From Perna viridis (Eukaryota): a stretch of 64,000 nucleotides of DNA. Under the pieces are notes generated by a model. That model was not told the DNA's origin. It worked only from the letters and a program-made list of their open reading frames with translations, and ran no database searches. The position numbers and the translations under genes were made by a program. The stretch covers positions 44,748,577 through 44,812,576 of the forward strand of contig CM074517.1 in the NCBI GenBank assembly GCA_037379345.1, in the 5' to 3' direction. Of this stretch, positions 7,346 through 62,169 are shown one piece after another (position 1 is the stretch's first letter; every line of letters starts with the position of its first letter).

Positions 7346-7504
7346 NNNNNNNNNNNNNNNNNNNNNNNNNNNNNNNNNNNNNNNNNNNNNNNNNNNNNNN
7401 NNNNNNNNNNNNNNNNNNNNNNNNNNNNNNNNNNNNNNNNNNNNNNNNNNNNNNNNNNNNNNNNNNNNNNNNNNNNNNNNNNNNNNNNNNNNNNNNNNNN
7501 NNNN
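7346..7504. other. Assembly gap (N run)
   Basis: Run of N characters. Confidence 1.
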
Positions 7505-7649: not shown

Positions 7650-7897
7650 TGTATTCGATAGGAGTAGGAACCTTTGCGCTCCGCCACAGGGGGCTAAATT
7701 GCCCAACCTTACCCATCCCTCCCTTTTTCTAGTGGCAATCAAAAATTTTCGACCCTATTATCCTTGTGTCCCATCCCCTTTTTTCATCTCATCATTATTT
7801 CATGTCCATTTTATCATCCATTTCATGTTCATTGTCTGAAAATAGCTGAAATATTGCTGCTCGGACGTTAAACCCCAACAATCAATCAATCAACCAA
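7650..7897 (+). mobile_element. SINE-like retroposon, 3' part (same family as 23486-24010 and 43377-43580)
   Basis: Shares GGAGTAGGAACC...GCTGAAATATTGCTGCTCGGACGTTAAACCCCAAC with the other copies and ends in (CAAT)n. Confidence 0.75.
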
Positions 7898-7937
7898 TGA
7901 CCAATTAAGGGGCGGTAATTGACACTTACGGTATATT

Positions 7938-8067
7938 AGTAGTGTCAAAAGGCCGATTCTACCGCACATGCAGAAATCCTGCATAAAACCCCCAACCCCG
8001 ACGGCCAAATGCAAACGGACGGTATCCCTATTGAGCATAAGGTAAATACAAGAATTATGGCTTTCGT
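7938..8067 (+). repeat. Left terminal inverted repeat of the Polinton
   Basis: AGTAGTGTCAAAAGGCCGATTCT...ATTATGGCTTTCGT is the reverse complement of 19252-19381 with a few mismatches; internal hairpin ATGCAG/CTGCAT. Confidence 0.95.
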
Positions 8068-8394
8068 TTCGATCGGAGAAGACTTCATCAGTGAAGATTT
8101 CTTCCAGGAAAAGGTTGAAGAGCAGAGTCAGGAAGCTCTGAAATGGAAGGACTTACCCATCGAGGTAATCTACAAGATCACGAGGTGATAGAGGTGGATG
8201 GAAAGTTCGGTAAGTCTAAGATCCTCACCTTGAAGGATAGACAAGGAGAGAGCACCAAAGTATGGGGTTGCCCTACGCTCAACAAAGAAAAAGATCCCTT
8301 TCAAGGAGCATACGTCCGGAGCACGGGATTCAAAGTGAGCAAAAAGTCCAAATAGGAATACCTCTCCTACGATCTGGCGAGGAAAAAAAAATAA
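8057..8394 (+). pseudogene. Polinton small left-end protein (possible OB-fold-like), frameshifted and with a premature stop
   Basis: MAFVSIGEDF...LKWKDLPIEVIYKIT, then a 1-nt deletion (frame intact in the copy at 61977-62145), then EVIEVDGKFGKSKILTLKDRQGESTKVWG. The fold assignment is inference only. Confidence 0.65.
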
Positions 8395-9069
8395 AAATAA
8401 CCGAGGCCTAGGGGTTCGAAATTTCCCAATCCAAATTACTGGAATTGAAAATTTTTTTTTGGTCACTTGAGACTTTGATCTGGAGGATTCTGGAATAAGC
8501 GCAGGGAGCGAGGCGTAACCGAGCGAGGAGAGCGTTGGAAGAATCCTCCCTATGGCCATGCGTAGTAAGGTCTTCACTAAAAGTGGTGGTGGTGGAAGGT
8601 TTCGCAGCTGCTGCTTTTCGTCGTAGTAGAAGCCAAGACATTTCACAACCCCTGCAAATTCAGATTCATCGATATCATCATCCTCCAGCGCTTTGCTCAC
8701 TGCATCTTCGATCTTGGATTGGTAGGATCTGGCGATACGCACGGTATCTTCATGCTTTTTACGCTTTTTGCGGATGCGCTTGACTATCACCGTCAACACC
8801 ATCATCGCGATGAAATTCACGACGGCTAGTGAGCTCAACGGAATGCATGCCACGGCGCATATCCCTGTGGCGGCGGTGCTGAGTGTGCCGGTGGTGCAAA
8901 TGACGTTGAGTACGGCACACGCACCCAGAGAAAAAGATACCGCTTTATCCACTCGCTTATAGGTCCTCGACAGTCGGGCATACTTATGTTTTTCGAATTC
9001 AAGCTCTCTCTCAATCGACTCGATCCTAGCTTTTCGGTAGGATTGCCTCTCAGAGCCTACGTTGTCCAT
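8170..9069 (-). CDS. Polinton membrane protein (two hydrophobic helices between coiled-coil/basic segments)
   Basis: AVSFSLGACAVLNVICTTGTLSTAATGICAVACIPLSSLAVVNFIAMMVLTVIV followed by KRIRKKRKKH; preceded by TAGATAAATG. The C-terminal ~130 aa overlap the opposite-strand gene and are probably not real. Confidence 0.65.
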   Translation of the reverse strand: MDNVGSERQSYRKARIESIERELEFEKHKYARLSRTYKRVDKAVSFSLGACAVLNVICTTGTLSTAATGICAVACIPLSSLAVVNFIAMMVLTVIVKRIRKKRKKHEDTVRIARSYQSKIEDAVSKALEDDDIDESEFAGVVKCLGFYYDEKQQLRNLPPPPLLVKTLLRMAIGRILPTLSSLGYASLPALIPESSRSKSQVTKKKFSIPVIWIGKFRTPRPRLFLFFFPRQIVGEVFLFGLFAHFESRAPDVCSLKGIFFFVERRATPYFGALSLSILQGEDLRLTELSIHLYHLVIL

Positions 9070-9079
9070 TTATCTATAT

Positions 9080-9431
9080 CTAGAGGAGCATGCCCAGCAG
9101 GGGAATACTTTTGAAGGGGCTATTAGGACCAAGGATCAATTCGCTACCGTCGTACACCTGACTCCCGCTTTTCACGTACAACCAATCCACCTTTTTTCTG
9201 CACGTTATGCCTCACCTGCTTCGGACTCATCTCCAAGACCATAGCACCCTTCCCACTCTGCAAAAGCTTGGTGATGCGCTGGATCTGGCACTGAGTGAGG
9301 AGCATCTTATGCTCACCGGATAGGTTTGCGTGCAGCAATCGAACGCTCACGGGGCAACCCTTCATTGCTGCACGCTGGATCTTCTCTGCCTGACCCATCG
9401 TCAAGTTGAGACCGTACTCTTGATAATCCAT
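9080..9431 (-). pseudogene. Polinton virion core protein, frameshifted and probably internally deleted
   Basis: N-part MDYQEYGLNLTMGQ...LLTQCQIQRI...KKGG; another frame gives the C-terminus LYVKSGSQVYDGSELILGPNSPFKSIPLLGMLL* (stop at 9080), a tail typical of adintovirus core proteins. Confidence 0.6.
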
Positions 9432-9435
9432 TTAT

Positions 9436-10187
9436 TTATACCTCACGCAGATGGAAGCAGATGGTGAGATGCTCTCCTCGCAGATCGATGGGGCGACCGT
9501 CTTGATCGGTCAGATACGTCTGCATGCGGTCGATGGTTCTCAGGGTCACGGGTAAGTAGACTAGTTTCTTGGGGGTCTGGATGATCTTCATACCAGGATC
9601 GACCACGGGAAAGAAGCTATATATATGGTGGACTGCTGGGTGTCGTTGACGTAGCTTTCGTGGATGATATCACCATTCACCAGGATGCTATTGATGCTGA
9701 TGATATTGACAATATTCTCACCCTCTGCATAACCATTAGTGCTACGGTCGAATCCAAGCACCGTATTTAGGCTATTAGGCTCGTCGAAATCCACTTGATA
9801 ATTTCTGGCGAGGATGAGGGTTGCTATCAGAATCGCGCGGTTGGCATCGAGAAGGACCTTAGCCTTGTGCTTATGGAGCCGCAGTTGCCGCTGGATCTCA
9901 TCGTTGATATCGTCGATGCCGTAGGAGCCGGTGCCCAGCTCGACGGGAAACCAGTTAGCCGAATCATCGGGAGAGTAGCGGAAGGAATTATTACCTGCAT
10001 GAATATTGGGGATGGAATAGTTGGTCTCCAGATTCACGAGGACCATCTCGTAGGATTTCTCCTCGCGCAGTTGGAGGGGTGGGTTGAAGCGAGTCAACAT
10101 CTGGCTATCGTTCCCAGAGACGATGAAGGAGAACCCATGCTTGGGTTCGGTATTGGTGGCGATTTCCCGCAAAAGTGAAGCGTCCAT
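9436..10187 (-). pseudogene. Minor capsid protein (penton, single jelly roll), frameshifted
   Basis: FNPPLQL...LVNLETNYSIPNI...GSYGIDDIND; after a frameshift near 9620 it continues FFPVVDPGMKIIQTPKKLVYLPV...LTDQDGRPIDLRGEHLTICFHLREV*. Confidence 0.85.
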
Positions 10188-10201
10188 TTATCTTACCCTC
10201 C

Positions 10202-11486
10202 TCAGAAGACGACGCTCATCTTCTGGCCATCGGATTCGAATTGGAGAATTCGATCGGAGATGACCAGGGCGAAGGCTTGGGTATTGGCAGGGACGTTGCG
10301 CTCGAAGTCGGCTCGGATCTGGATATCCACCGTCGACTCTTTCAACCGCTCGGACTGATTGCTCACGTCGATGACGAATAGGGGATAGAGATCGATGAAG
10401 TCGGAGGGATTGATGCCGCCATTGCTCAGCAGACTTTCTATGCTATAGAATTTCTTGTGGAATTCGGCAGCTTCCTTGTAGAGCCTGGCGACCCTGCATT
10501 GGGTGAAGCCGACATTGAAGTCCACGGCGGGATAGCACTCCGCATTGAGGGTCACATGGATATTTCGCAATCGGCAGTGGTCGAAGACAGGGCATTATGC
10601 AGCTGATCATTATCCCTATCGGTCTGGAAGGGACGATGATCCATCGCGGTTTTTATCGCCCGCTTTTAGCGGCTAGACGCCAGTGAAATAGCAAAGTATT
10701 GGGCACGGCGATTGAGTCGCACTGCCTCATGCGAAATCCGCAATTGATCTTGGTTTGGCTCTGGATAGTCCTATAGAGCCGCAGCTTCTTTTCGTCGGAG
10801 GGGATGACGTGGGGGACGAACCAGGAAACCTTGCTCAGTACTACTTTGGCCACGTCGTTGACGGCGGCGCCTCGGAGTATGGCATTTGCATCCGAATCTC
10901 GCACCAGGGAGATCTCGTGCTTGAATCCGTAGACAATCTTATCGTAGTCCTCGGCAAAGCCAAAGACGTGCTTGAGCGGGATGGAGAAGGAAAATGATCC
11001 CTTATTGGTTGGCTTGGTGATGATATACCCGTGACGTATTACGAATCCAAAGTTTTCTGCCTCGGCATTGGTCGTGGAGTCTTTGAACCATAGTTGGTTG
11101 AGGCCTTGTGATTTGGAGAAATCGGCGGGGTACGTCAGCATTCCTGGCATGGTTGTGGCAATGCCGGGGTCGTTTAGGTGCTCGATCTGCTGCCCGGAGA
11201 GTCGGTAGCTGATGCTACGAAAGAGATACGTGGCACCATTATGGAAGAGCGATACCAGATCGCCGTCGCCATACGCAGTGCCATCGTTCTTCTGATCTCG
11301 GGCTTCAATCAAGAGATAGCTTTCGGCGGGGTGGAGGAAGAGATCCTGGGTCTCGATATTGATGCGTATCTCTGCGCCGGCATTATTTAGCTACGTCCCG
11401 GCTTGAGGTTCGTATTCGTGAACCTGATACTCCTGGACACTTTCATCGAAAGTCAGTCCTTCGGTGATAGTGAGCATATCGGCCAT
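10202..11486 (-). pseudogene. Major capsid protein (double jelly roll), with in-frame stop and frameshifts
   Basis: MADMLTITEGLTFDESVQEYQVHEYEP...EIRINIETQDLFLHPAESYL; IPLKHVFGFAEDYDK; LYPLFVIDVSNQSERLKESTVDIQI. Combines ORFs 10653-11312 and 10202-10570. Confidence 0.88.
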
Positions 11487-11493
11487 CAAATAT

Positions 11494-11815
11494 TTATCTA
11501 TAGCCCTGGACGAAGTGGTGGATGGTGGCGATGCCCCCGCCCGAGATAAGATTATTGAGACGGGCCTGCTGCTGCGAGGTCCTCTTGGACTTGGTGGGTG
11601 GTGTTGGGGGAGGATTTTTCTTGCAAGTCACTCGATGGACGACGTGGTCCACCTTTCAGGGCTGCATTGGAAGCGGCGCTCACGGCCTTACTACCCAACG
11701 TCTTGGCGGCAGAGGAGGTAAGCACGCGTCCGGCTAGATTGGTGATGGTATCGAATAGTCCTCGTCCGCCGACGGCATATCTCCGGCGATAACCGTGATT
11801 CACTACTAAAGGCAT
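11494..11815 (-). pseudogene. Basic virion core protein (adenovirus pVII/pX-like), frameshifted
   Basis: GYRRRYAVGGRGLFDTITNLAGRVL: a Gly-Gly/G-L-F candidate protease site followed by an amphipathic helix; C-terminus RLNNLISGGGIATIHHFVQGYR* in another frame. Confidence 0.55.
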
Positions 11816-11825
11816 CGTAAATTTA

Positions 11826-12465
11826 TTTAGAGGACCTTCCGATGTAGCTTCTCGTATTCCTCCCTGCTGATATGGTCAGACTATCTCATGGCGTCGAGGA
11901 TGGCCACGATTTCGTTGCGCACCCCATTATTTCCAGCCTGGTAGGCGGCAGCGCAAAGATCGAGACGATCCAGCAGCTGGTCGAAGCATGTGGGGAGGAA
12001 GACGGTCGGCACCCCGCTGCCATATTTATCTTGCTTATAAAAGTAGGATACGATCTCCTTCCATTTGCGGCTTCGATTGTACTTTGGAGTGCGCGAGAGG
12101 ATAGAATTTCCTTGATACATCGCATATGATGCTCCCATTGTGCCTCTTGCATTTATCACTGCCCGATATGGATGGGTACGTGCACAGATGGCCACGGACG
12201 GTCTTGATGCAGCACGGTGGTCCCTGCGGCTGCTTAGGTTTGCGACGGGAGTGGGAATTATAGGTCCTTTCTTCGAAATCCTGCTCATTGAAGCGGTTGG
12301 CGTACCTTTCGGCGGCGCATCCACTGCAGTTATATCCTCGGATTTCGCCATGAATAAGCACACGCTCCCACCGCATTCAGGGGGTGGTCGTGAGGGCTTG
12401 AAAGCATTCTCCAGATCCAAGTCCCGCAGTAATCCATTCTTTATCATAGACTCGATAGAACTCAT
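11826..12465 (-). pseudogene. Conserved Polinton protein of unknown function
   Basis: C-terminal FLPTCFDQLLDRLDLCAAAYQAGNNGVRNEIVAILD resembles the LP..PxxLxxRL...AGN...NEI motif common in Polinton ORFs located between ATPase and capsid; frameshifted. Confidence 0.6.
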
Positions 12466-13211
12466 CTAGATTGTATCGATATTTCGCTGCCGTCTTGGGG
12501 CTCGTGAGATCGATGGTCAGAATCCATGAGACTTGGACCAGCAGTGGTCGCATAGGGAATCGAATTGAGCCGGGGTGAGATCGCCGCAATGGTCCCAGCG
12601 GATATGATCGCTATTCTTGGCATCCTGCTCGAAGAGGCAGATGAAGTTGGCATTCTCCCGGATCGATTGCCGCGGGAGCTTGAAGTAATTTTGGCAGAGA
12701 TAAAAGCAGTCCACGTTATTATGGCGGCCGCGCACGTAGTAGTCTTCATACTTGCTCTGCTTGCTCAGCATCAAATCGTCGTAGACCATGAGATTCTTGC
12801 GGGTGGAATCGAGCTCTAAAGGATCGGGCACGTCGCTCGCCTGCTCAAAGAAGAAAGGTTCGATACCGCTAGGCTTGGACGGTGGCTTCATCACCTCCAC
12901 CACGTCTACCAAACAGAGTGGGGATAGCGATCCTTGATGGTGAGAAGATCGCGGATATCGTCTTTCGAAAACCCCTTCCCAAACGCCCGCCGCAGTAGCT
13001 AGTAGATGGGCTGGTGGAGTGATTTTCCGAAGACGTAGAATCGATCGTAGTCGAGCCATCCATCGGGCAGGAGGAGGTTATTCAGCAGCGTTGTCTTGCC
13101 GCAGTCCGATTTCCCGATGATCAGACCTCGGATAGATCGCTGCGGGAGGAGAAAGTGGTTATGCAGACGACTCGCGGTGGGCTCATCGTAGGTAAGGTCT
13201 TCAACGTCCAT
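12377..13211 (-). pseudogene. A32/FtsK-like genome packaging ATPase, disrupted
   Basis: Walker A LIIGKSDCGKTT; Walker B LMVYDD; RGRHNN, QNYFKLPRQSIRENAN. Split over ORFs 12999-13211, 12517-13059 and 12377-12589. Confidence 0.9.
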
Positions 13212-13224
13212 TTATCTATATAAA

Positions 13225-13737
13225 ATGGCAATGTACTGCTTGAAATGCAAGAGGAAGACGGAGACGAATAGTCACGCCGTGATCACGAGCAATGTCGGAT
13301 GGCGGCAGCGGAAGGTGGGGACCTGCGCCGAGTGCGGTACGCGGAAGTCGCAATTCATCAAGACGAAGGAGGGCGCCGGACTCGTGAATAAGCTGATCAA
13401 TCGGATGCCCGTCGAAATGCATCTGCCTGGGCATAATTTCACCGGTCCGGGGACAAGACTCAGCATGCAACTCGATGCCGACGGCACCCCCAAACCTTGG
13501 TCGAGGCCCATCAATCGAATCGATGAGGCCGCCTATCGCCACGATATTTGTTATGCCAAGCACAAGGATACGGCCGCACACAATTCGATCTGCGATAAGA
13601 CGATGCTAGCCTCCCTCGATGCCATCCCCAATCCCACCGCACACGAGCGCTTCGAGCGTGGCATCGTCAAACCCATCATCGGCACTAAAGCGCGATTTGG
13701 GCTGGTCGTGGGAGGAAAAAAAGTACGGACGAGCTAG
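13225..13737 (+). CDS. Zinc ribbon plus parvovirus VP1-type phospholipase A2 domain protein
   Basis: YCLKC...CAECG zinc ribbon; HNFTGPGT Ca-loop-like motif; DEAAYRHDICY catalytic HD motif and downstream D. Confidence 0.85.
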   Translation: MAMYCLKCKRKTETNSHAVITSNVGWRQRKVGTCAECGTRKSQFIKTKEGAGLVNKLINRMPVEMHLPGHNFTGPGTRLSMQLDADGTPKPWSRPINRIDEAAYRHDICYAKHKDTAAHNSICDKTMLASLDAIPNPTAHERFERGIVKPIIGTKARFGLVVGGKKVRTS

Positions 13738-14578
13738 CCGAAGAGCTGCATAAGCCAGTCCAACGTAACTTTCAGAAGATCGCGTGGTGGTAGGTGGGGT
13801 GGACGAGACCTGGGTTGCCGATCTCGTAGATATGAGCGCCTTCTCCCGCGATAACCGAGGCTTCAAGTATCTCTTGAGCATCATCGACGTCTTCTCCAAG
13901 TACGACTGGCTGGTGCCGCTCAAGAATAAGAGAGGCGCCACGGTGCGAGATGCCTTACGGACCGTCTTCAAGGATCGCACGCCCGAGAAGCTATGGACCG
14001 ATAAGGGGACGGAATTTTATAATCGCGAGATGAAGGATCTGCTCAAGAAGCACGGCATAGATCTCTACTACACAGAGAACGAAGAGAAATCAAGCGTGGT
14101 GGAGCGTTGGAATCGTACCATGAAGGAGAAGATGTTCAAATATTTCTGGGCCAATTCCACGCGCACCTACCTTCCCGTCTTGGACCATCTCGTCCACCAG
14201 TATAATACCACCAAGCATCGATCCATCAAGATGACTCCCACCGCCGCCAGCGAGAAAGAGCACGAGACCAAGGTCTTCTGGAATCTTTACGGAGACCTCC
14301 CACCCATGCAGCCGCGGCGATTCGACGTGAGCGATAAGGTCCGAATCACCAAGAAAAAGAGCACCTTCGAGAATGGATATACTGCGCGATGGACGGAGGT
14401 CTTTACCATCGCCCAGGCCCTAGCGACGCAGCCACCCACCTACCGCCTCAAAGACTACGAGGGTGAGGAGATCAAAGGATCCTTCTACGAGCCCGAGCTT
14501 CAGCGCACCGATGAGGATATCTATCGCATCGAGAAAGAGAAAGAAAATCTTGAAAGTCAGAAAGTCAGAAAGTCTTGA
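13728..14578 (+). pseudogene. Retroviral-like (rve) DDE integrase, frameshifted near its N-terminus, chromodomain apparently lost
   Basis: DELAEELHKPVQRNF then WVADLVDM (D), LWTDKGTEF (D), VVERWNRT (E), GSFYEPELQ; ends shortly after IYRIEK. Confidence 0.92.
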
Positions 14579-14660
14579 TTTACGCATGCTTCAGCTCGAC
14601 GAAGACCCTTAATGCGTCCAGATCCGCCTGCAGGCGATCGTGAAGGGCTTTGGTGATAGG

Positions 14661-15050
14661 TTAGTTGTCGGTCCGAGGAAGTGGGAGATTTAGCAGGTGA
14701 TATTTTTGCATGTCTAGATCCACATTCACCTTGCCGCCATTGGTCGAGACGCAATCTGACTTATCGACTTTGCCATCTTCTACGGCGATCAGCTTTTTGG
14801 TAAGATCTTTGATCGATGCGTCATACTCCCTCTGCTTCCGCTTGATGGTCACCTGGATCTGCTTACATTCCAAATCTAGCTCGTCGATGTCTTTCATGCC
14901 GTCTTTCAATTGTTGGGTGACCCCTCGCTTCGTCACGGCGTCCGAGCTGTCTCGGGGCAAACCGAGGCTGGTGATCTGATGATCTTTCATATCCTGAAGC
15001 ATCCGCCAGACGGGCATGCGCTTTCTCGAGTGAGATCCAAACTTATCCAT
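14661..15050 (-). CDS. Fibre-like / trimeric stalk-repeat protein
   Basis: Two motifs, DMKDHQITSLGLPRDSSDAVTK and DMQKYHLLNLPLPRTDN, resemble tail-fibre/adhesin neck repeats and are separated by a coiled coil; preceded by TAGATAAATG. Confidence 0.5.
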   Translation of the reverse strand: MDKFGSHSRKRMPVWRMLQDMKDHQITSLGLPRDSSDAVTKRGVTQQLKDGMKDIDELDLECKQIQVTIKRKQREYDASIKDLTKKLIAVEDGKVDKSDCVSTNGGKVNVDLDMQKYHLLNLPLPRTDN

Positions 15051-15054
15051 TTAT

Positions 15055-15468
15055 CTATAGTCCGAAGATCACCTCTTCCAGCGTCCGACCTTCCGATAAG
15101 AGCTTCAGTACGTGCAGGCAAAAGTGCCCGCAGACCACGTCGCCGCGCCGCTGGAGCTCATCGGTATTATATCGAATTTCCGGCTGCAGATAGTCGACCA
15201 TCTTGTCGGGTGGAGGCAGGCCGTAGGAGTCGAAGTAGACTTTGAGTCCTCCACGCTTATACCAGCACGTCCAGTGCGTGCCGAAGCCATCGCGATCGTC
15301 GTGATTCAGGACGCCGCACTCGTTGGGTTGGGGGTTGGATGGTAGGGCACCGCGCATGAATACTCCTCTGAATCGAGGGATGCCTAGGGCCGTGGCGGCT
15401 TCCTCGAGCTCTATGTTGGAGAGGGGCTTGTGGGGGAGGAGGATACCTTGCACGCGTATGCTGCTCAT
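15055..15468 (-). CDS. Adenain-like cysteine maturation protease
   Basis: Catalytic motifs GTHW (H), YFDSYG (D), ELQ (Q) and CGHFC (C) in an intact 137-aa ORF. Confidence 0.93.
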   Translation of the reverse strand: MSSIRVQGILLPHKPLSNIELEEAATALGIPRFRGVFMRGALPSNPQPNECGVLNHDDRDGFGTHWTCWYKRGGLKVYFDSYGLPPPDKMVDYLQPEIRYNTDELQRRGDVVCGHFCLHVLKLLSEGRTLEEVIFGL

Positions 15469-15488
15469 TTATCTAGGTATGAGCATTC

Positions 15489-15576
15489 GCCAAGTGTGGG
15501 ATGGGCATCCACACCCGTCAGAACCTGCTAAATGCGGGATGGGCATCCGCACCCGTCAGAGAATGCTAAGTGCGGA
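15489..15576. repeat. 38-bp tandem repeat (~2.3 copies), each full unit forming a hairpin
   Basis: GGGATGGGCATCC(A/G)CACCCGTCAGA at 15498 and 15536; GCTAA(A/G)TGCGG at 15527 and 15565. Confidence 0.85.
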
Positions 15577-15592
15577 GGGGTGGTGGATGACC

Positions 15593-18500
15593 TCAGGCGT
15601 GGGCGATTCGATAGTGTCCGAGGGCGAGGGTGATAATGCCGTCCGGGAGGATGTGGCGCTTGTCATCTTTGGCGGAGAGAGCGATCTTGATCTCCTCCGT
15701 GTAGATCTGATGGAGATGGCTCCGGATGATATTCATCGGACGATGAATCTCCTGCTGGGTGTCAAGGCATCGCTTGTAGTCCTCGAAGGCGATGCTGCGC
15801 TTGGTGACTCCCTTTGCCTTCTTGATGGTCTCGTCATCCCCTACCTTGAAGGCATATAGCTTCGCCTGTAGCCCCACGAACTCGGTCATGGTCTTACCGC
15901 CGCACTCGTCCTTGAACATCCCGATGATCTTATTAACGTCAATGGGGATGTTGGGCGTATCGAATTTTTCCGGGATGTGTGGCGCGATGTCTTTGTAGAA
16001 GTCGGCGGTCTGGATTTCGTAGGCCAAGCTGTCTGTGTCGGTAAAGAGCAGCCGAACCTTATCGCCGTACGTCTTTCTCACGAATCCGTAGTGGAAGTCG
16101 TACATCAGGAGCTTCGAGATATCCAAGATGCAGGCTCCCAAGTAGATCGGCTTATCGAACTTCAGCTCGGTCTTCTTCATATGCACGGCTACAAGATTCT
16201 CGGTGAAGACGACCCTCCGCTCAAAGTTGGGTTTGGCCACGAGCTTCAGGGCCTGCTTCGCGGTGGTAACTAGTTTGACGTCGACGCGCTTCGGGATATT
16301 TTCCATCGTTTTGCCGAAGACCGAATTATTCATGAGCTTGAAAAACGCGTTCTCGGAGTCGGTCTTAACCGCGCCTCGAAGCTTCGTATTCAGCTCGATA
16401 TACGACTTGAGCCAGGGGGATTGCCTGAACCCTATGATGCGATGGACTTTGACGAGCTTCAAGCCCATCGATAAGTAGAGCTTGAGATTTCGATAGTGAA
16501 GGGCATATTTTTTCGCGCTTGCCTAGATGAGGCACGAGCTTGCGCACCTTGTCGATTTCCACGTTTTCCGGCGCGAGAGTGTGGTCGTTGTGGGCGTCGT
16601 GAAGATCTTGCAGATATTCCAGATTGCATTCCACTCTGGTTCCGTATTCGTGATCGTCTGGATACTCCAAGACCTTCTCGATCTCCTCCGGCTCCATCCA
16701 CTCGAAGTCTCCCGTGGGAAGGGGCTGTACCATCGCCCAACCGTAGAGGTTATTGGCGTCGAGGTAGGTGAGATATTTGGTTGGTTGGGAGTGATCGTAG
16801 TCGGCCATGTAGGGACCCCCTTCCTAATCATTAGCTCGTACTTATCGCTAAAGCATTCCCGAACCGCATTGAATTTATCGGGCGTGAGATTCTTCGCCAG
16901 ATTTTCGAGGTAGCTGAGCATGAATCTGCACGAATCGATGAATCTCATCTCCAGACCATCTTTTATCTGCTTCGAGAAGCTTATATGTTTCTCGTTCGTA
17001 TTCGGGATGCAGGTGATCTTTCCCCCGTTGAATTCCTTCACGAAAAGATGGGCATCGTACCCACTCAGGTTGTGGGGTATGATGGGCACGTGCTTCGGAA
17101 GCTGAAAATCTAGGTTGCACTGGTTGTGTGCCGCGCCCCGATACTTACCGGTGAGGTGGTCGTGGTCCCGGACCTGATCCCCATTCAATGCGAATGTGGA
17201 TGTGGCAGTGCGTGCTTTCTTCAAATCCCTCCTTATCCTCGTCGCTCATCTCCATCGGCTTCTTCTCCTTGCATATCTTGCTGATCGCCTGTACTTCCTC
17301 TTCGATGCATTGCACAAATATCTTGGCCGCCTCCTCCCCGCAGTAGACGACCGATTCCTTGTAGTCGCCGCAGGCATACTTCAGGCGATAGCAGAAACCT
17401 AACGGCCGGTGCTACTGATACTGCTTCGTGTAGGACTTGGTCGGGTCGGGCCGGCAGGTATCGATCTTCTCCGTGAAGCACTCAAAGTCCGCGTAGATCG
17501 CGAATGGGACTGTCATCTGCCTCTTGTGATTATGGAAGGCTATGGTGGATCCTTCTTCCGGCATCTCGATCCTGATCGCATCCTTCTGGCTGCAATATTC
17601 CATATGGTCCTCGAGAAGGTCCTGTCTGGCGATGTGGTAAAGGCATCTGCGGCAGAAGAAGAGCCCATGACCATGCTCTGAGATTTGGGAACTCAAAAGG
17701 CGTGATAAGCTCCTGATCCAGCAGTAATGCTGCTTGCCTTCGCGGGTCAGGAAGAGGAGATCTACGTGGGTGGGGCTCGTATTCTTTGATATCCTGAGGG
17801 GGTAAACCTGGAGATTCTCTTCTTCATCTTCACCCTTCTTTACGCCATCGAAGCCAAAAACGTTGACGTTGATGTTGGGGTTCTGCCTCTCGAATTTATC
17901 GATCGCCTTGAAGGAGACCATGAAGTCGACGCCTTCGAATTTTAGCTCACCCTTCCATCTCTTGTATTGAGCTACGCGGTTTGCTGACTTCTGGCCAATC
18001 TCATCGTAGTGTAGGGCTGCCAGCACCGCCCACTGGAAGCAACGATCATCCTCATTTTTCACATTGACGATCGCCATTTTTTTCGCGAGTGCCGATGGGG
18101 TTGCTATGAAGGAACCCCCCTTGATTGGCTTGAATTAGTTGAGATGGATTTCTAGCTTATCGATGCTGCTGAATGTCCACCCGCTCCCTTCCCACATGCA
18201 TCTTGCCATATTTTCCTTGACCTTCTCCATCATGAACGATCTCCAATTCGAGGTCGTCAGATTCCGCGACCATTGTCGTGCGTGATCGGAAGTAGGGGGT
18301 GAAGTAGCCAGTAGGTATTCTCCCCAGTCGCGGGGTTGGTTTTCACCATCTCTGCAAAGATCACTAAGTGAACTTTCAATCCCTTCTTTTGAGTGAGCGC
18401 GTTCGAGATGGCGGTGGTGATGGTGCTCCGACTACTTTGAGAAATGTGGTCACGTCGTGCGGCTTCGCGGGTTCGTTGACGACCGTACCAAATACACCAT

Positions 18501-19262
18501 TCAGATCTTCCCGCCTATGGGTGACCTTGTTCTCATCTTCGACTGGGGCGCTTTTGATGTCCTCTTCCACCAAATGGAGTAGATCGTCTCTCTTGAGCTG
18601 GGAATATTTGGTGAGGCCACAATTCTTTGCTAGCGCTTTGAGCTGCTTCTTGCTGAAGACTTCCTGGCGGGCAAATTTACGGGTGGTTTTCTTCTCGATG
18701 AGCTTCACCAAGGCCTCCTTGTTCTTCCTACTGACCCCCCTCAGACCCTCATCCTTAGCTATTTGACTGAGAGTCGTCATGGTCTCTTTTACCACCATCT
18801 TACCCTCGACTGGGATGACCTCCTCCTCCTCCTGCTGGCGTGGTTGCCTGCTATGCCTTCAGTAGAGACCATCCTTCCCGGGCTTGCTTTTGCAGAACTT
18901 CCCCTTCTTTCTCTTGAGTGGGACGCCGCAAGTGGTCTTCTGTTCCCCTGGTTGATGCTCAAATCGCGTCTTGGTTGATTGTGCACCGCAATTTTGACAC
19001 ATCTGGGTATGCTCATCCGTCTGCGTCACGTTGGGGATATCGCAGCACTCCCGCTGCCTTTGGGGGTTTGGAGTTGGAGTGGTATCCTCCAAATCTTCTT
19101 CATTCTCCAGAAAGAATTCCTGGTAGCGATTTATATTATCACTATTGGATGCCACCCCTTTATTCATTCAATCTGTGGCACATCTCTCTTTAAGGTGTCC
19201 TTATCCACATCCCCACTATCCTCAGCTGGGTCGACCTGACGTATGCTCTGTACGAAAGCCAT
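15593..19262 (-). pseudogene. polB: Protein-primed family B DNA polymerase with long N-terminal extension, multiply frameshifted
   Basis: Pol motifs YLDANNLYGWAM, KLMNNSVFGK and TDTDS; Exo motifs YADFE and HNLSGYD; endonuclease-VII-like DHDHLTGKYRGAAHNQCN; OTU-like VNVKNEDDRCFQWAV...HYCWI; C2H2 finger. Upstream ORFs 18376-18798 and 18859-19167 are in frame with each other; that they belong to the same gene is inference. Confidence 0.93.
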
Positions 19263-19381
19263 AATTTTTGTATTTACCCTATGCTCAATAAGGATGCCTT
19301 CCGTTTGCATTTGGCCGTCGGGGTTGGGGGTTTTATGCAGGATTTCTGCATGTGCGATAGAATCGGCCTTTTGACACTACT
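19252..19381 (-). repeat. Right terminal inverted repeat of the Polinton
   Basis: Reverse complement of 7938-8067; ends ...TTTTGACACTACT. Confidence 0.95.
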
Positions 19382-20112
19382 GATATTTGGAAGACAACAG
19401 AGATCTTGAATATACTCTAGCCATAAAGATTAAGGTATCGCTTTCGGTTTTGGATTCATTTGAAGTGATCGGTAACAGACTTTGTCATTTAAACTACGTG
19501 AACAATAAAAAGAGACTTCATGGGTGTTTATTGTCATGATACGATTGTTTCTTGAATTTTATGTCAAATTTGCAGCCAGGTTATCCAAAACCAATGAATT
19601 ATATTTTAAGATAATTTGTGTTAACAGTTATATGTAAACTGTTGTTTTGGGCATTTTAGGTATGTCTTCATATGACCTAGGAGAACTGACATTTGACTTT
19701 TAGATGGGGGTGGGGCTAGGATCTAATTTGAAATGAAAAGTCAGGATTGAATCTTTCAAGAAATTAAAAAACAGGACAAGCCTAACGAAAAAATAAAAAA
19801 AGACACAATCTATTATATTTAAAATTTTGGCGCTTTTCGCCGAAGAAAATATGCAGGACCTACATGTTTATTATCTCAATAAAAAGGTAGAGCATAACAT
19901 TTCCAATACATGGATATATTGCATTTTTGACAAGACACCCTCACTTTTTCCCATTCCTAATTCATTTGTTCATAGTTATACTGAAAAAAAAATCAAGATT
20001 ATTTTTAACTCTATGACAAATACATACGCCATCCAATTTATTTTGTGTTGTGCCTTCATAAATTTCATATGAAGAAATCTTATGGCTCTTAGTTTCTGCA
20101 CCTGTTCCTTGA

Positions 20113-21807: not shown

Positions 21808-24178
21808 AAGCTCAAGGTAGCGAACAATAAGTCCGAGCAAGCTAGCGAACAACAGGGCAGCAAACAATAAAAAAGCGCGGGAAACTCCAATATCTAAAAA
21901 CCATAGAACATAACAAACCCACAACGGACTTTGCCATTTTATTTCATATTATTTATGTATTATTGGATAATTTCGTAATAAAAATTTTGATACTATTGTG
22001 TTTATGAACGTACTTCTGATGCATTTTAAATTGCCTAATTGAAACTGAGATTCAAAACTTTTGAAATACAATTTTGAATGCCTTCATAGACGTAAAATAT
22101 TAATTTGCATACTGATATTATTAATTAACTAATTTCGGACCCTTGTTTAGGGCCCGATTTGTAAATATCCTGATCTGACATTTATAACTCTGTCAACTTT
22201 AGTTGTATAACTCAATCCAGTTAAATAGAAATGTTAAAAATAAACAATTATCCTTCTATATAGATACAAAAATAAATTATATCCCCTTTTTGAAAAAAAA
22301 ACTACACAAACGGAAACATACAAACAAAACAAAACAAAAAACAAAACAAAACAAAGCAAAACAAAACAAAACAAAACATAAAAAAAACCAAAAAAACCAA
22401 AAAACTTATTAATCACCACTGTTAAACTTTACTCCACGTCGAAAAAGAAATTCTATGAATAGTTAATTCGTTACTAGAATGAAAAAAAAATAATGTGTTG
22501 GCGGGTGCTGAATTTGGGGAATGATCCATATGCACTTCCTAGAAATTTGATGGTTAATTAAACAATACATTGAAAACTCAGCCTGTAACCGTTCTCCCAA
22601 ACTGAAAATTCAAAGTTGGCAAAAAAATCGTGAGGGGGATCCCTCTTCAAGGGGTCATAAAAAAATTCCTACGGCAAAGCTTTTACAGACCATTCAGGGT
22701 TAGCTAGTCACCATACAGGTTAGTTTCGTTTAAAATTAAGCTTTTGTGGACAATAAAGGGCTGAGTTTTCAATATTTTTGGTTAGTTAACGCCCAGTTTC
22801 TAGGATGTGCATATAGATCGTTTCCCAAAGACGGGACCCCCCCCCACACACCTTATTTTTCTCATTCTTGTCATGAATTAACTATTTATAGAAATGGTTT
22901 TTGAGGAGTGAAATTTAACAGTGACGGGTAATTATTTGTTTTTATGTCGTTTATTTTTTTCTATTTTTTGTTTTTTTGTTTACATGTTTTTTGTTTAAGT
23001 GTTTTGACAAATAGGGGGTGTATTTTTGTATCTATATATTATGTATCTATATAGAAGTGGAATTGCTTATTTTCAATATTATTCTTTCTTTGTGTAACTG
23101 ATTTGCGTTACAAAATTAAAGTTAACGGAGTTATCAATCTCAGATCTACAAATGAGGGCACTAACACAGTGTCCAAAATAAAATATATCAGTATGAAAAA
23201 TACTTTCTAACGCCTATCTAGTGAAAGCTAAATAACGAATGAATTCAATTTTTCATTTTTTTTTGCTTTTACATGGAAAATAAAACATTTAAAAAAAAAT
23301 AGTAATTAGTACATTCTGTCGCCTTTAGATCCAGACAATAATAAATCTAGAAATAGCATTCACAATTTTATTTTAAAAGCTTTTATTCTCAATTTCAATA
23401 AAGCAATTTGAAATGCATTTGAAGTACGCGTATAAAAAATAGTATAGTCACAAATTTATTACGAAGTTATCCAAATGACACATGTCTCCGTGCAGGTCCG
23501 GGTATTAAAAGAATAGGCCTGCAGCAGCGCTAAGCTTGTCGTAAAAGGCGACTACATAGTACTCAGAACCCTAGCCGGGGGCTAGGGCGCTCTGCCCACA
23601 AAGCAACTGGGATGTGTGCCCCAGGTGTTGGAATGGGGTACCCCTGGTGTGTTACATGCTGGGGTTGTCAGGCTATAATACGGAAAACCTGACTGCAAAC
23701 CATAGTGGTGCACCATGTTGGGAAAGATGCCACGTTCCTCGCACGTTAAAGAACCCTACTGTGGTATTCTCCCGGAGTAGGAACCATAGGGCTCCGCCAC
23801 AGGAGGCTAAATTGCCCAACCCTACCCACCTCTCCCTATTTCCAGTGGCAATCAAAATTTGTCGACCCCATTGTCCTTGTGTCCCATCCCTTTTTTCATT
23901 TCATCATCATTTCATGTTCATTTTATCATCCATTTCATGTTCATCGTCTGAATATAGCTGAAATATTGCTGCTCGGACGTTAAACCCCAACAAACAAAAC
24001 AAAAACAATACAAATGACACATGTGAATGACACAGTCCGTTGTGGTTTTTTGTTTGTTATGTTTTACGGTTTTTAAGCATTGAAGTTTTCCCGTGCTTCT
24101 TAATGTTCGCTTTATTGTTCGCTAGCATGATCTAGCTTATTATTCGCTGGCTTATTGTTCGCTAGCTTGAGCTTGGCA
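21808..24178. mobile_element. Foldback (long-TIR) non-autonomous DNA element inserted in a minisatellite
   Basis: Left arm ~21808-22560 is the imperfect reverse complement of the right arm ~22790-24178 once the SINE at 23486-24010 is removed; ends CCAAGCTCAAG / CTTGAGCTTGG. Confidence 0.75.
23486..24010 (+). mobile_element. SINE-like retroposon with 14-bp TSD
   Basis: TSD CAAATGACACATGT at 23472-23485 and 24011-24024; A/C-rich tail; 3' half shared with 7650-7897 and 43377-43580. Confidence 0.88.
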
Positions 24179-29060: not shown

Positions 29061-29516
29061 TATACAAACGTCTCAGAATGTGACGACTCTAATCGCTACA
29101 CTGCTCCATCGGATCAAATTGATACAGGGAAGATATGTAAACGTATAGAAAGGTCTGAAAAGTTCCCAACGATGTTAGAACTTCAAATTTGCGATGCAAA
29201 TTTTTGGTCGTTTCCTCCGCGCGCGGGACTCGAACTCGTACCGCTGTGACATCTATGGCAACACCGCCTGCACAAAGTCCAGCGCCCTAGACCACTCGAC
29301 CAGCTAGGCTATATAAAAATATAGCTTTCGCTGACCGGATCATTCCTCCTCGTAGGATTAATCTAGGGCTGTAACTTAGTACACGATGTATGGTAGTACG
29401 AGACAGTTCATTTAGATGTTATTATGTAGGATAGAGGATCAAATTAATGATGCATGTCACAACAAATCAATATTATACAAACGTCTCAGAATGTGACGTT
29501 TCTATTCGCTACACTG
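29061..29516 (-). mobile_element. tRNA-Leu-derived non-autonomous element: 413-bp unit plus ~43-bp terminal redundancy
   Basis: Head at 29309-29220 with A box TGGTCGAGTGG and B box GAGTTCGAGTCC; direct repeat TATACAAACGTCTCAGAATGTGACG at 29061 and 29474. Confidence 0.75.
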
Positions 29517-35427: not shown

Positions 35428-36400
35428 TAAATGATGAGACCTGGATTTTGTTTCTACCTTGCCTATCATTTGAATGATGAGACCTGGATGTTGTTTCTAC
35501 CTTGCCTATCATTTGAATAATGAGACCTGGATGTTGTTTCTACCTTGCCTATCCTTTAAATGGTGAGACTGGATGTTGTTTCTACCTTGTCTATCATTTA
35601 AATGGTGAGACCTGGATGTTGTTTCTACCTTGTTTATCCTTTGAATGATGAGACCTGGATGTTGCTTCTACCTTGTCTATCCTTTGAATGATGAGACTTA
35701 GATGTTGCTTCTACCTTGTCTATCCTTTGAATGATGAGACCTGGATGTTGGTTCTACCTTGCCTATTCTTTGAACGATGAGACCTGGATGTTGGTTCTAC
35801 CTTGCCTATTCTTTGAATGATGCGACCTGGATGTTGTTTCTACCTTGCCTATCCTTTAAATGGTGAGACCTGGATGTTGTTTCTATCTTACCTATCCTTT
35901 GAATGATGAGACCTGGATGTTGTTTTTACTTTGCCTATCCTTTGAATGATGAGACCTGGATGTTGTTTCTACCTTGTCCATCCTTTGAATGGTGAGACCT
36001 GGATGTTGTTTCTACCTTGTCGATCCTTTGAATGATGAGACCTGGATGTTGTTTCTACCTTGTCGATCCTTTGAATGATGAGACCTGGATGTTGCTTCTA
36101 CCTTGTCTATCCTTTGAATGATGAGACCTGGATGTTGCTTCTACATTGCCTATTATTTGAATGATGAGACCTGGATGTTGTTTCTACCTTGTCTATCCTT
36201 TGAATGATGAGACCTGGATGTTGTTTCTACCTTGTCTATCCTTTGAATGATGAGACCTGGATGTTACTTCTACCTTGCCTATCCTTTGAATGATTAGAAT
36301 TGGCCGTCGCTTCAAACTTTCCTATTATATGAATGATGAGACTTTGATGTTGTTTCTGTCTTGCCTATTCTTGAATGATAAGACTGGGATGTCGCTTCTA
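35428..36400. repeat. 43-bp minisatellite, roughly 22 copies
   Basis: Unit GAATGATGAGACCTGGATGTTGTTTCTACCTTGCCTATCCTTT, head-to-tail with no spacers. Confidence 0.95.
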
Positions 36401-37167
36401 CTTTTCTAATCTCTGCATCTAACCTTGCTTATGTCTTCATAAAATATAACGGAACGCAGAACGTTTGTTTCCCCAGTACAGCTCTTAATACAAAGTTTTA
36501 ATGATATAATTATTTCTTAGCATGTCGTTAAATTAAATGAAAAGGATATTTTGTTCTTTTATAATGAACTTTTCACTTTTATCTTGGCAAATAATACCAC
36601 AATACAGTTTAAATTGAGTTCATTCCATAAGAAAAAATGAGATATGATAATAACAATGAACTCTTGATACAGTATTTTGGTGATAAAATTATTTCTAGGT
36701 GTGTCGTAAAAGTTAATGAAACAGTACTTTTTTGTTTTACATTGAAATATTTTACCTTTATGTTGACAAACAAACAAAACTAAAAAACAGTTTAAATTGA
36801 GTTCACTTCGTAAGAAAGAATGGGATTTGTAAATAACCTTGAACTTTTTGTTTGTTTTTTTTTTAATTATCTTTCTATATAAATTAAATTTAATCCACGT
36901 AAGTAAGATATTGTTATCTAAGTACCATATGTATATGCTCATTTCTAACTTTTCAGACGTTTTTCAGGGTTGATGACCTGAAAGATAAGTGGTCAGACAC
37001 ACTCTTTACCAGTAATAGGCAGAGAGACAGTTTCCCAGGTATGAGGGCGTTACGGGCCATAGTTAATATTTATAGAAAATTGACTTATAGAATATTGTTA
37101 ATTATTTGGCGTTTTTAAAAAACTATCCTGTACAAAAAAAAAAACAATACCAGTTGTAAATTTCGAT

Positions 37168-40260: not shown

Positions 40261-41405
40261 GGAATTAAAAATAAAACAACAATGTTTGAGGTTAAAAGAT
40301 AAAACAGCTTATTATCAAGATTAAACAGTGTTGGCAATGGCCTATTTGTGAAATAACATTAGATATAATAATAGATATGACAAATATAATTCATGGATAT
40401 CAAATATTAAAATGTGGCGTGAAAAATACATTTAAATTAAACTCGAGTTCTAGGAAAAGATTTCGGTGTGTGTTTGTGCTGACGCTTGTCAGTTTTAAGT
40501 TTGGTTTAGACCTAAATGTATCAGAATCTTTCATTTTTGTTCACTTTCAATACATCATAGCAAAAATCTAAAATCCAAAAATATAATTGAGTTTTACTAT
40601 TTTTTGTTTTCTTTTGTTGTGTTAGTTTGTTTTTTTTTTAATTTTTTTTTTGAAAATATTTAAAGAAAAGAAATGTAGAGGAGATTACTCTGCAAAACAG
40701 ACCGAAGCGTCAACAAAAAGGGGTGATACAAATATGTCAAAATAATAAAAAAAAACAAGCTTTGGGACCGCAACTGTGGTCGATTTTCGATTGTCATATG
40801 CGGCTTAAGCGACTTATCGGGCGTGGCTTGTGTGTGTGTGTAAATTATCGCCCACCTTAATCATGTAAACAAGCTCACGTAACATTCCGATGTGTATGTT
40901 TTCATTCGTTTCAGTAACATGAATGAACATCAAATTCATATTTTATAAAGATGTTAAACGTTATGTTTTAGAAAAGTTATAGAATATTCCGTACAAATCA
41001 CTTACACACATACTCAGTTGCATTTGCCAGGTGCGCCATCATATATGAAACCAAACAATAACAATCGCCATTGAATGAAACACTGTACCTGTCCATGTGT
41101 GAACACTTTGACCTTATGCAAACGACTATTGCCATATCTAATATCGATCTACGTAATTCGCCCATTCTTCATTAAAAAAACAAAGCAAAGTTTCACTAGC
41201 GACCATTGCAACTGATATAGGTAGTGTTAAGTGTTCAGCCAAATATGGACAAATATGGCTGATCTAAGGTTGCCGTAATAGGTCACCAAAATATAGTCTT
41301 CATTAACAAGTGCATTATATTATATAATATTCTATATTTATTTTTCACCACAGCAAGATAACTTTTTGTCTTATTTCTACGGATATTACCAAAAGCAGCT
41401 GAAAC

Positions 41406-43034: not shown

Positions 43035-43376
43035 GTAAGAAAGTCATGATTTACTGTATATACAATAAGATCGGGAATTACAAGTCAATTACCAATATTC
43101 TTTTTCTATTTGAATATAAAAGTATAAAATTCAGAGCAAGAGAGTTTATATTGCTATCAAAACAGAAAGAAATAACCGGATGTTAATGTATTATTATATC
43201 CCGGTAAATCGAGTTATACTCGAATTTTCGTTGATATCCAATGTAATTCATGTGTAACTTGTCATTGTGTTCACCTACAGCATTTTTTCTTCTAATCAAT
43301 GAAATATTTGTTTTTGTAAAAGATGAGTATATAAACTTAAAAACAAACCTTGAAGCCATACGACCAAGATATATTT

Positions 43377-43580
43377 GATTGATTGATTGATTGTTGGGGT
43401 AAAGGCCCGAGCTGCAATATTTCAGCTATATTCAGGCAATGAACATGAAATGGATGATAAAATGAACATGAAATGATGATGATGATGATGAAATGAAAAA
43501 AAGAAGGGATGGGACACAAGGATAATAGAGTCGAAAAATTTTTAGTGCCACAAGATAAAAGGAAGAGATGATAGGGAGAT
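43377..43580 (-). mobile_element. Intronic SINE-like 3' fragment
   Basis: Reverse complement of the tail of 23486-24010, with (GATT)n. Confidence 0.75.
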
Positions 43581-44840: not shown

Positions 44841-45031
44841 TACAATCAAATACATTAATACCTATCAACATATCAGAAGAGCAGAATTTGCATCAATTAG
44901 AGAATTATCATTTATTGACATAAAAAAGTTTCTCACAATCAAAACCTTTAATTAATGATAAAATGATTTCAGAGAATTATCATTTAAATGATTCAGTACT
45001 TATTGTTATTTTCTATGTACTTTTGTTGCAG

Positions 45032-60172: not shown

Positions 60173-60498
60173 AGGTCTGAAAAATTCCCAACGATGTTAG
60201 AACTATCAAATTTGCGATGCAAATTTTTGGTCGTTCCCTCCGCGGGACTCGAACTCGTTGCGCTGTGACATCTATGGCAACATCGCCTGCACAAAGTCTA
60301 AGTCTAGGGCGCTGGACTTTGTGCAGGCGGTGTTGCCATAGATGTCACAGCGGTACGAGTTCGAGTCCCGCGGAGGGAACGACCAACATCGTTGGGAATT
60401 TTTCAGACCTTTCTATAAGTTTACGTTATCTTCCCTGTATCAAACTGATCCGATGGAGCAGTGTAGCGAATAGAGTCGTTGGGAATTTTTCAGACCCT
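60169..60498. mobile_element. Head-to-head inverted pair of the tRNA-Leu-headed element between (TA)n tracts
   Basis: 60169-60298 matches 29148-29280 directly and 60302-60480 matches the reverse complement of the 29 kb copy, forming a palindrome centred near 60300. Confidence 0.85.
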
Positions 60499-61857: not shown

Positions 61858-62169
61858 AGTAGTGTGAAAAGGCCGATTCTACCGCACATGCAGAAATCCT
61901 GCATAAAAACCCCAACCCCGACAGCCAAATGCAAATGGACGACATCCCTATTGAGCATAGGGTAAATACAAGAATTATGGCTTTCGTATCGATCGAAGAA
62001 GACTTCATCAGTGAAGATTTCTTCCAGGAAAAGGTTGAAGAGCAGAGTCAGGAAGCTCTGAAATGGGAGGACTTACCCATCAGGGTAATCTACAAGATCA
62101 CGGAGGTGATAGAGGTGGATGGAAAGTTCGGTATGTCTAAGATCCACGCACGGTATCTTCATGCTTTTT
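61858..62169 (+). mobile_element. Internally deleted left-end fragment of the same Polinton family
   Basis: 61858-62145 matches 7938-8224 (TIR plus MAFV ORF); 62146-62169 matches 8737-8760. Confidence 0.92.

Follow-up and report, generated by a model that had tools for sequence, protein, structure and literature searches.

The window analysed here, i.e. the whole stretch of 64,000 nucleotides from Perna viridis (assembly GCA_037379345.1, contig CM074517.1, forward-strand positions 44,748,577 to 44,812,576), contains a Polinton-type element of 11,444 bp at 7938-19381 (window coordinates), with both ends present. It was found that the element is bounded by terminal inverted repeats (TIRs) of 130 bp, which differ at 6/130 positions and bear AGTAGT at both termini. 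The left TIR, with its AGTAGT end, occupies 7938..8067 (plus strand) and carries the ATG of the first gene at TIR position 120; the right TIR occupies 19252..19381 (minus strand). Hexamers at 7932..7937 and 19382..19387 form a target-site duplication (TSD) identical at 5/6 positions, for which a chance probability of 0.008 was calculated from the flank composition; a single mismatch has a probability of 0.25 given the element's level of decay. The integrated Polinton/adintovirus-like element proposed in an earlier sequence-only reading was thus confirmed, together with its 130-bp AGTAGT TIRs and 5/6 TSD. The GC content of the element is 51.7%, that of the flanks 31.5% and 33.1%, and the observed/expected CpG ratio is 1.02 in the element versus 0.79. 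As set out below, the locus very probably represents an Alpha-adintovirus-type Polinton that inserted once and then decayed neutrally, and whose working relatives would make their integrase as a recoded or fused extension of a phospholipase A2 (PLA2) protein. A repeat resembling a short interspersed nuclear element (SINE), with a CAAT tail and very high copy number, adjoins the left end (7660-7900) and recurs at 23774-23997 and 43375-43570; it was heavily covered in the RNA run X21.

Fourteen gene loci were mapped with the open reading frames (ORFs) of 79 related loci and with full-length DNA polymerases of family B that are protein-primed (pPolBs). Among 24 window ORFs searched against Pfam, matches above the cut-off were obtained for the double jelly-roll (DJR) capsid (two pieces), rve, PLA2 with DUF5679, and Rho_N, and matches below it for A32, PolB2 and EndoVII. 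The Polinton core set is present: pPolB, rve integrase, DJR major capsid protein (MCP), penton, packaging ATPase and cysteine protease. The DUF5679 zinc-finger and parvovirus-type PLA2 gene (13225..13737, plus strand; PF18930 E 1e-9, PF08398 E 3e-8) is unbroken and is followed by the rve integrase (13716..14578, plus strand; PF00665 E 6e-13), which is 86-90% identical to P0001/P0261, is frameshifted near 13778 and has lost its chromodomain after ~14536; sister copies retain the chromodomain. The pPolB gene (15593..19262, minus strand) starts within the right TIR and comprises zinc-finger, Rho_N, vOTU-like, exonuclease (Exo) with EndoVII insert, and polymerase regions, in line with the TP-vOTU-Exo-Pol model of pPolB given in the available text of PMC11071308. 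It is interrupted by several stops and frameshifts, and Exo III was lost through a deletion near 16814; apart from Exo III, which lay in the deleted part, all motifs checked were present in pieces. Its relative P0121 matched PF03175 at E 2e-22. No phage match to pPolB was obtained by tblastn, and the pPolB profile found no polymerase among solved structures.

The MCP gene lies in two pieces at 10202..11489 (minus strand; PF21738 E 2e-24 and 6e-25), and a viral contig scan with an MCP piece returned 0 loci. The A32/FtsK-type packaging ATPase (12449..13211, minus strand; PF04665) is 88-89% identical to an ORF of L037 and keeps its Walker A motif, with two frameshifts and one stop. The penton/minor capsid gene (9436..10187, minus strand; 50-63% to an L008 ORF) has one frameshift near 9620, and the adenain/Ulp1-type maturation protease (15055..15468, minus strand), with its His-Asp-Cys motifs, is unbroken. 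These last two calls rest, with moderate scores, on the structural model of a relative and on a profile, respectively: the penton model matched PBCV-1 (Z 9.4, root-mean-square deviation 10.2, 209 aligned), EhV-201 (Z 8.5), the mavirus penton (Z 7.8) and Sputnik (Z 7.5, deviation 3.0, 123 aligned), and the protease profile matched S273R at E 0.0055 and adenain at E 0.0057. Between pPolB and protease, at 15479-15570, there is a ~44-bp tandem duplication, one unit of which was skipped by a contig of run X1 (depth ~2,000) and by contigs in X12 and X13.

The remaining loci are smaller. A gene at the left end that the sequence-only reading had overlooked (8057..8390, plus strand; frameshift near 8180, stop near 8353) has 18 relatives and is a candidate single-stranded-DNA-binding protein (SSB) with an oligonucleotide-binding (OB) fold: the predicted model of a relative matched OB folds at Z 5-6.4, in the common range, and the nearest named Atlas cluster was a phi29-type SSB at 0.89, to be taken as a lead only. 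The two-transmembrane SLATT-like gene (8560..9069, minus strand; 29% to an L029 ORF) is frameshifted near its 3' end; SLATT hits of its relative were weak, and the same relative had no gasdermin match in Pfam. A basic, core-like gene (9083..9431, minus strand) has lost the middle of what is a protein of ~195 aa in relatives, whose G-x-G motifs point to a possible core role. A small basic amphipathic gene (11552..11815, minus strand; 31% to an L026 ORF) is unbroken. At 11830..12465 (minus strand) two gene remnants were fused by a deletion near 12140, namely a conserved 288-aa protein, of which the C-terminal third is left, and a zinc-finger protein, of which the N-terminal half is left. This zinc-finger gene by the ATPase (12140-12465; L037:138-731) is a paralogue of the pPolB zinc-finger N-terminus (18934-19134), with 29% identity over 78 aa (E 1e-5). 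The fibre-like coiled-coil gene (14586..15050, minus strand; 41% to an L011 ORF, which has a weak T7 tail-fibre match) contains a stop near 14663. From the gene set named in the sequence-only reading, MCP, penton, ATPase, protease, integrase, PLA2 and pPolB were thereby verified, while for 'core proteins' and 'fibre' we infer the labels from position, composition and weak hits. For the intergenic stretch 8395-8560, a polymerase III or hairpin RNA was considered and rejected (z -1.7 to +0.5 across 5 folds); folds of the TIR and of the 15465-15600 spacer were unremarkable, and neither Rfam (0 matches) nor ARAGORN (0 genes) returned anything.

Most long genes were rightly described at first reading as disrupted, since 11/14 loci are broken, with only PLA2, protease and the small basic gene spared. 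Four large internal deletions were identified. Compared with close relatives, pPolB is short of ~139 aa, Exo III among them, and the integrase chromodomain, ~80 aa of the basic protein and a two-gene junction are gone as well; the deleted pieces were found nowhere else in the window. The description 'complete' therefore holds for the two ends and fails for pPolB Exo III, the chromodomain and parts of the basic and other genes. The present copy is unable to replicate or build particles; judged by uninterrupted core ORFs, the 'intact' Maverick criterion of Barreat and Katzourakis, it is a genomic fossil.

The extent of decay was estimated in three ways. Private changes in the TIRs amounted to 6/260 sites, i.e. 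2.3% (interval 0.9-5.0%). At 2.3%, 7.4-8.7 new stops are expected per 3,200 codons, and 9-10 were observed, so that the combination of similar TIRs with broken genes is no paradox. Private amino-acid changes numbered 75 in the window versus 25 in the nearest relative over 869 sites of pPolB, and 19 versus 7 over 251 sites of the integrase, a protein-level excess of 5-6% that would match the expectation from 2.3% neutral change. The agreement of the three estimates indicated neutral decay of ~2-3%. The changes were directional: 10/11 private TIR changes were from G/C to A/T, and differences from family reads were AT-shifted (391 vs 225 in X1, P=2e-11; same direction in 4/4 runs), counts that include variation among copies. 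The earlier statement that no compositional amelioration had occurred was not confirmed. A homopolymer of at least 4 was present in 6/15 break regions, and germline decay fits the lesions better than assembly error.

If the element were instead a recent, essentially intact exogenous virus with breaks introduced by the assembly, one could understand its GC content 20 points above the host, the CpG ratio of 1.02 versus 0.79, the short-read-type scaffold gap nearby, and the finding that no run examined contained as many as half of the sampled words (best 0.39). We consider this very improbable, because the changes are directional from G/C to A/T, stop numbers fit neutral decay, there are four large deletions, most breaks lie outside homopolymers, the sister elements described below are equally GC-rich and the family is of high copy number in X1.

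Membership in a multicopy family was apparent from read depth. The summed contig depth in X1 was 10,593-52,442 across the element versus 173 on a unique flank contig. Such a sum is not a true copy number and reads only as about two orders of magnitude, which limits what can be drawn from it; the family is GC-rich and would comprise roughly a hundred copies. Its copy number is high in a run of organism A, whose label the best-matching runs carry. Runs of two further organisms (B, C) covered 30/30 bins, flank included. The DNA runs were represented by contigs, among which no molecule ends were listed. For the stretch itself no RNA run was listed, a result that carries no information about its expression. 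RNA depth inside the element was 0-3.8 in X21, chiefly from the structural-gene strand, and the RNA reads were mostly 85-95% alike, which implied that they derive from other copies. A second remnant of the family was found at 61858..62169 (plus strand), in which 287 bp of left end (95%) are fused to a 24-bp internal piece (8737-8760).

A multicopy family also raises the alternative that the element is a chimeric assembly of several copies and not a single insertion. Family contigs over the element fragment into ~170-300 nt pieces, and a 159-N scaffold gap lies at 7346-7504, 434 bp left of the element. No contig or read among those listed spanned either host junction. The joints listed included no empty-site or host-junction joint. 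With no listed record spanning a host junction and the N run nearby, a chimera is possible. Nevertheless, the TSD agrees at 5/6 positions (chance 0.008), and TIRs, integrase and pPolB have decayed to about the same extent, so that we regard a chimera as highly unlikely and retain a single, decayed insertion.

Intact relatives, whose existence had been suspected in the sequence-only reading, do occur: uninterrupted pPolBs of 1,292-1,368 aa were found at 78-86% identity, and sister ORFs exist in Mytilus. The nearest fetched DNA was L037, 88.6% identical at the nucleotide level over 2,229 bp, and L011 at 89.6%. Among the proteins of L037/L011, one matches a Mytilus galloprovincialis entry exactly, and a second falls into a cluster with M. 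galloprovincialis and M. edulis. An exact look-up of seven proteins of the window found none of them (0/7). The unannotated Mytilus sister family (VDI12298.1, VDI81878.1, CAG2228151.1) has the same local gene order and GC as the window element and differs from it at 18-25% of synonymous positions, with a dS of 0.2-0.3. The family's genes are under purifying selection, as dN/dS (the ratio of nonsynonymous to synonymous rates) to the sister family was 0.15-0.33 in 5/5 gene pieces. In the pPolB phylogeny that had been called for (39 rows: the window piece, 28 chosen of 124 polymerase hits, and 10 chosen loci), the window piece fell into a starred clade of 10-12 rows together with Mytilus-labelled proteins. 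Horizontal movement of the family between bivalve genera is conceivable, and we put it forward only tentatively. The Mytilus-linked sister contigs have a GC content of 51-54% and a GC at third codon positions of ~0.7. Because the sisters are equally GC-rich, high GC is characteristic of the lineage; the contrast with the host stands as first described, yet it is no sign of a recent exogenous origin of the insertion.

The element has the (AGT)2 TIR ends, 6-bp TSD, pPolB, rve and capsid/ATPase/protease set of Polinton/Maverick elements (Eupolintoviridae). According to the available text of PMC8097293, (AGT)2 ends with 6-bp TSDs are the commonest Maverick signature, 96% of vertebrate Maverick copies are degraded fossils, and intact copies measure 12.7-24.6 kb. 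The window element shares with them the (AGT)2 termini and 6-bp TSD, its TIR falling within their range of 46-1,447 bp, and differs in its invertebrate host, its PLA2, SSB and SLATT accessory genes, and its length of 11.4 kb after deletions. With the Alpha adintoviruses mapped in the portions of PMC8502044 at hand (Starrett et al. 2021; Hydra, Stylophora, Spodoptera maps) it has in common rve, FtsK/A32 ATPase, hexon, penton, adenain, PLA2, SLATT-like and SSDBP genes; the Spodoptera Mavericks stand on the Alpha panel there, with SLATT and SSDBP labels too. As far as the accessible part of Geisler 2018 (PMC5803895) describes them, Spodoptera Mavericks carry a PLA2 gene and a PolB that bears EndoVII and scores weakly against PF03175, and the Sf elements share with the window pPolB its vOTU-like motifs, EndoVII insert and weak PF03175 score. 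A leaning towards Betadintovirus, based on the weak PF03175 score, was dropped as the same weak score is found in Spodoptera Mavericks. The Alphadintovirus trait of PLA2X in the virion module was present (PF08398). The gene set matches that of an Alpha adintovirus (Eupolintoviridae, Alphadintovirus), and the element would work like one; its domain signature, shared with the Spodoptera Mavericks, makes the genus a candidate placement. In contrast to those viruses, the window copy is dead, internally deleted and rearranged in its capsid block, and a -1 junction, which the available passages of PMC8502044 and PMC5803895 do not mention, ties its integrase to the PLA2 gene. Further classification references are 10.1101/2023.08.22.554363, PMC11131425, PMC8363768, PMC3671162 and PMC11071296.

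The same gene set was found in unrelated metagenome and IMG/VR contigs, e.g. L080, L081, L083, L026 and L051. The GC content is 52% in the window element versus 32-42% in the fetched relatives with the full gene set. TIR-bounded relatives with this gene set in other gene orders were L080 (1-16929), L099 (1-9821), L051 and L067; the contig of L080 ends in TIRs of 1,086 bp, and L051 and L067 have AGTAGT ends.

At the PLA2/integrase junction of the window, an A7 run lies at 13716..13722 (plus strand), with the integrase at -1, open from 13689 and lacking an ATG. Comparison was made over 53 motif-anchored rows from 102 loci, a set that replaced an earlier unanchored pass of 72 rows, the window's among them, with 32 at -1, 24 at +1 and 16 in frame, in which distant lesions were mixed in. 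An A-run of at least 6 directly past a conserved G-x-G motif was observed in 53/53 junctions, and of at least 7 in 41 (lengths 6 to 12), compared with a background of 3.7% per 80 nt; the integrase frame was open back to the A-run in 52/53. The G-x-G motif also recurs in the basic proteins of the element. In the 15 junctions in which both frames are open, 13 were at -1, 2 at +1 and 0 in frame; 13/15 at -1 has P=3e-5 against one third, for rows that are not independent. Each of the two +1 cases is set apart from -1 siblings by one A, and every cluster at 90% identity (11/11) has a -1 member. A phased slippery heptamer was present in 12/13 of the -1 both-open junctions. An ATG before the first catalytic Asp was absent in 12/15 both-open relatives, while 13/13 control integrases without a preceding PLA2 have their own ATG, and no stand-alone integrase start was seen in the family's DNA. 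In-frame PLA2-integrase fusions make up 6/148 database integrases, including P0261, which is 90% identical to the window integrase. A conserved -1 overlap, a slippery run and the lack of an own start are the features by which programmed -1 recoding is recognised, and as evidence from sequence the comparative signal for the predicted recoding is solid. The arrangement suggests a Gag-Pol-like recoding that would package the integrase.

Several findings weigh against such a reading. Over all 53 junctions the frames were 29/53 at -1, 19/53 at +1 and 5/53 in frame, a mixture that is expected if many copies are dead. The both-open loci collapse to 8 clusters at 80% identity and to 3 at 70%. An upstream in-frame ATG was found in 10/48 out-of-frame rows, and a called start, of whatever codon type, lay upstream of the conserved motif in 83/148 database integrases. 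No 3' stimulatory RNA structure was detected at the junction (z -1.5 to +1.5 in 15/15). The window junction itself lacks a conserved Trp and falls short of its L037 sister by 7 nt, so that it may be a damaged in-frame fusion. The junction pattern might be incidental, with Lys-Lys codons in AT-rich DNA and homopolymer slips in dead copies or assemblies splitting an ordinary in-frame fusion, or with a weak upstream start codon in use; the existence of in-frame fusions (P0002, P0261 and others), an ATG formed within Gly-Trp codons in some rows, and the variable run lengths and +1 rows noted above, would agree with this. Against it, both-open rows are never in frame and mostly at -1, the +1 cases lie one A from their -1 siblings, and A7+ occurs in just 2/59 Lys-Lys pairs inside integrases. 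We hold an incidental origin to be possible, with the balance tilted away from it.

The recoding reading can be carried further. It is fairly probable, judging from these alignments, that a group of Polintons widespread among marine invertebrates, with this family as a member, would make integrase solely as a PLA2 extension via -1 recoding at the A-run, packaged for integration immediately after infection. Since no downstream stem-loop was found, ribosomal frameshifting and slippage of the polymerase are equally likely; a retrovirus-type signal is disfavoured and slippage is not. RNA depth near the junction was <0.3. Retroviral Gag-Pol and IS3-type -1 frameshifting offer parallels, in which, as here, a particle or partner protein is joined to an rve-fold enzyme over a slippery A-run, with release by a protease presumed here; the present case differs in being a dsDNA element with PLA2 as the upstream partner and no downstream stem-loop found. 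In the available text of Buck et al., slippery sites are proposed for penton and hexon-adenain, with no mention of the PLA2/integrase junction. No published description of this junction was found, although supplements, GenBank maps, Repbase or subscription papers could hold one.

An AT-rich motif was observed at the gene starts. GATAAATG occurs 6 times versus 0.39 expected (maximum 4 in 200 shuffles), 5 of these at gene starts; a match near 12,150 lies within aligned coding sequence and was for that reason not accepted as the start of a gene. Overall, the motif was found at 161/246 starts versus 110/1,792 internal ATGs, and the integrase is the one gene without it (0/9 starts). ATPase and PLA2 diverge from start codons separated by 13 nt here; in five relatives the spacing is 24-45 nt. 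The motif resembles poxvirus late initiators and could point to a helper polymerase; an A-rich translation context with tight gene packing would also explain it. Transcriptional slippage by the RNA polymerase of a helper large DNA virus as the means of recoding would account both for this motif at nearly every start codon and for the 13-45-nt divergent-gene gap, and is in our estimation unlikely. No published description of the start motif was found. The ATG at position 120 in both TIRs opens the SSB-like gene (8057) and pPolB (19262), and the TIR-encoded first residues resemble those of Mytilus trossulus pPolB and several SSB relatives; these starts likely reflect a shared early promoter of the terminal genes.

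The resemblance of the motif to late initiators of large DNA viruses, the still open PLA2 and protease ORFs and the low-level family RNA, mainly from the structural-gene strand, would be compatible with a defensive provirus maintained by the host, like the provirophages of protists. We hold this to be very unlikely: capsid, ATPase, integrase and polymerase are all broken in the window copy, two short open ORFs are the chance expectation at 2-3% decay, and the RNA, being mostly 85-95% alike, comes from other copies.

Elsewhere in the window, a 43-bp tandem satellite of ~24 units was found at 35440-36470, and two long single-exon host ORFs at 41403-43046 and 44924-46576, the latter a secretin-family 7TM receptor with few database relatives. 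Among 5,319 candidates, 4 hits reached E 1e-20 or better, and none bore a species name such as Mytilus; the host, which by the element's relatives, GC and repeats looks like a bivalve, may thus belong to another genus. A 72-nt inverted repeat with a 16-nt loop lies amid retroelement-like fragments at 60227-60386, and has a 71-nt perfect inverted match 31 kb away, at 29222-29292.

The preferred explanation is thus an Alpha-adintovirus-type Polinton that would have been inserted by its own rve integrase, giving the 6-bp TSD, and would since have decayed neutrally through AT-biased substitution of ~2-3%, frameshifts and four large deletions. In working members, the linear genome would be copied from the TIRs by pPolB, aided by SSB, both proteins apparently beginning at the same TIR-encoded ATG, and particles would be built by MCP, penton, ATPase and protease. 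Lacking a start of its own, the integrase would arise through -1 recoding at the A-run, or through in-frame fusion, as a stretch added to the C-terminus of the PLA2 virion protein. Proteases of this kind are known to cut at G-x-G-type sites, and the integrase would probably be freed at the G-x-G site by the element's protease and hence carried in the particle.

The insertion as such is ordinary, a decayed Polinton in a genome group known to be rich in such elements. In the accessible text of 10.1101/2025.04.19.649669, a count of 107,631 dsDNA viral regions is given for bivalve genomes, with 58.5% placed in Orthopolintovirales, and that source and the available part of PMC10294476 describe Polinton-type regions as abundant in bivalves. 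Whether animal Polintons form infectious particles is a long-open question. If the proposed recoding is true, it would explain the truncated N-termini of many database integrases of the group and add a parallel between Polintons and retroelements, and a virion-attached integrase would argue that integration is tied to particle entry and not to intracellular transposition.

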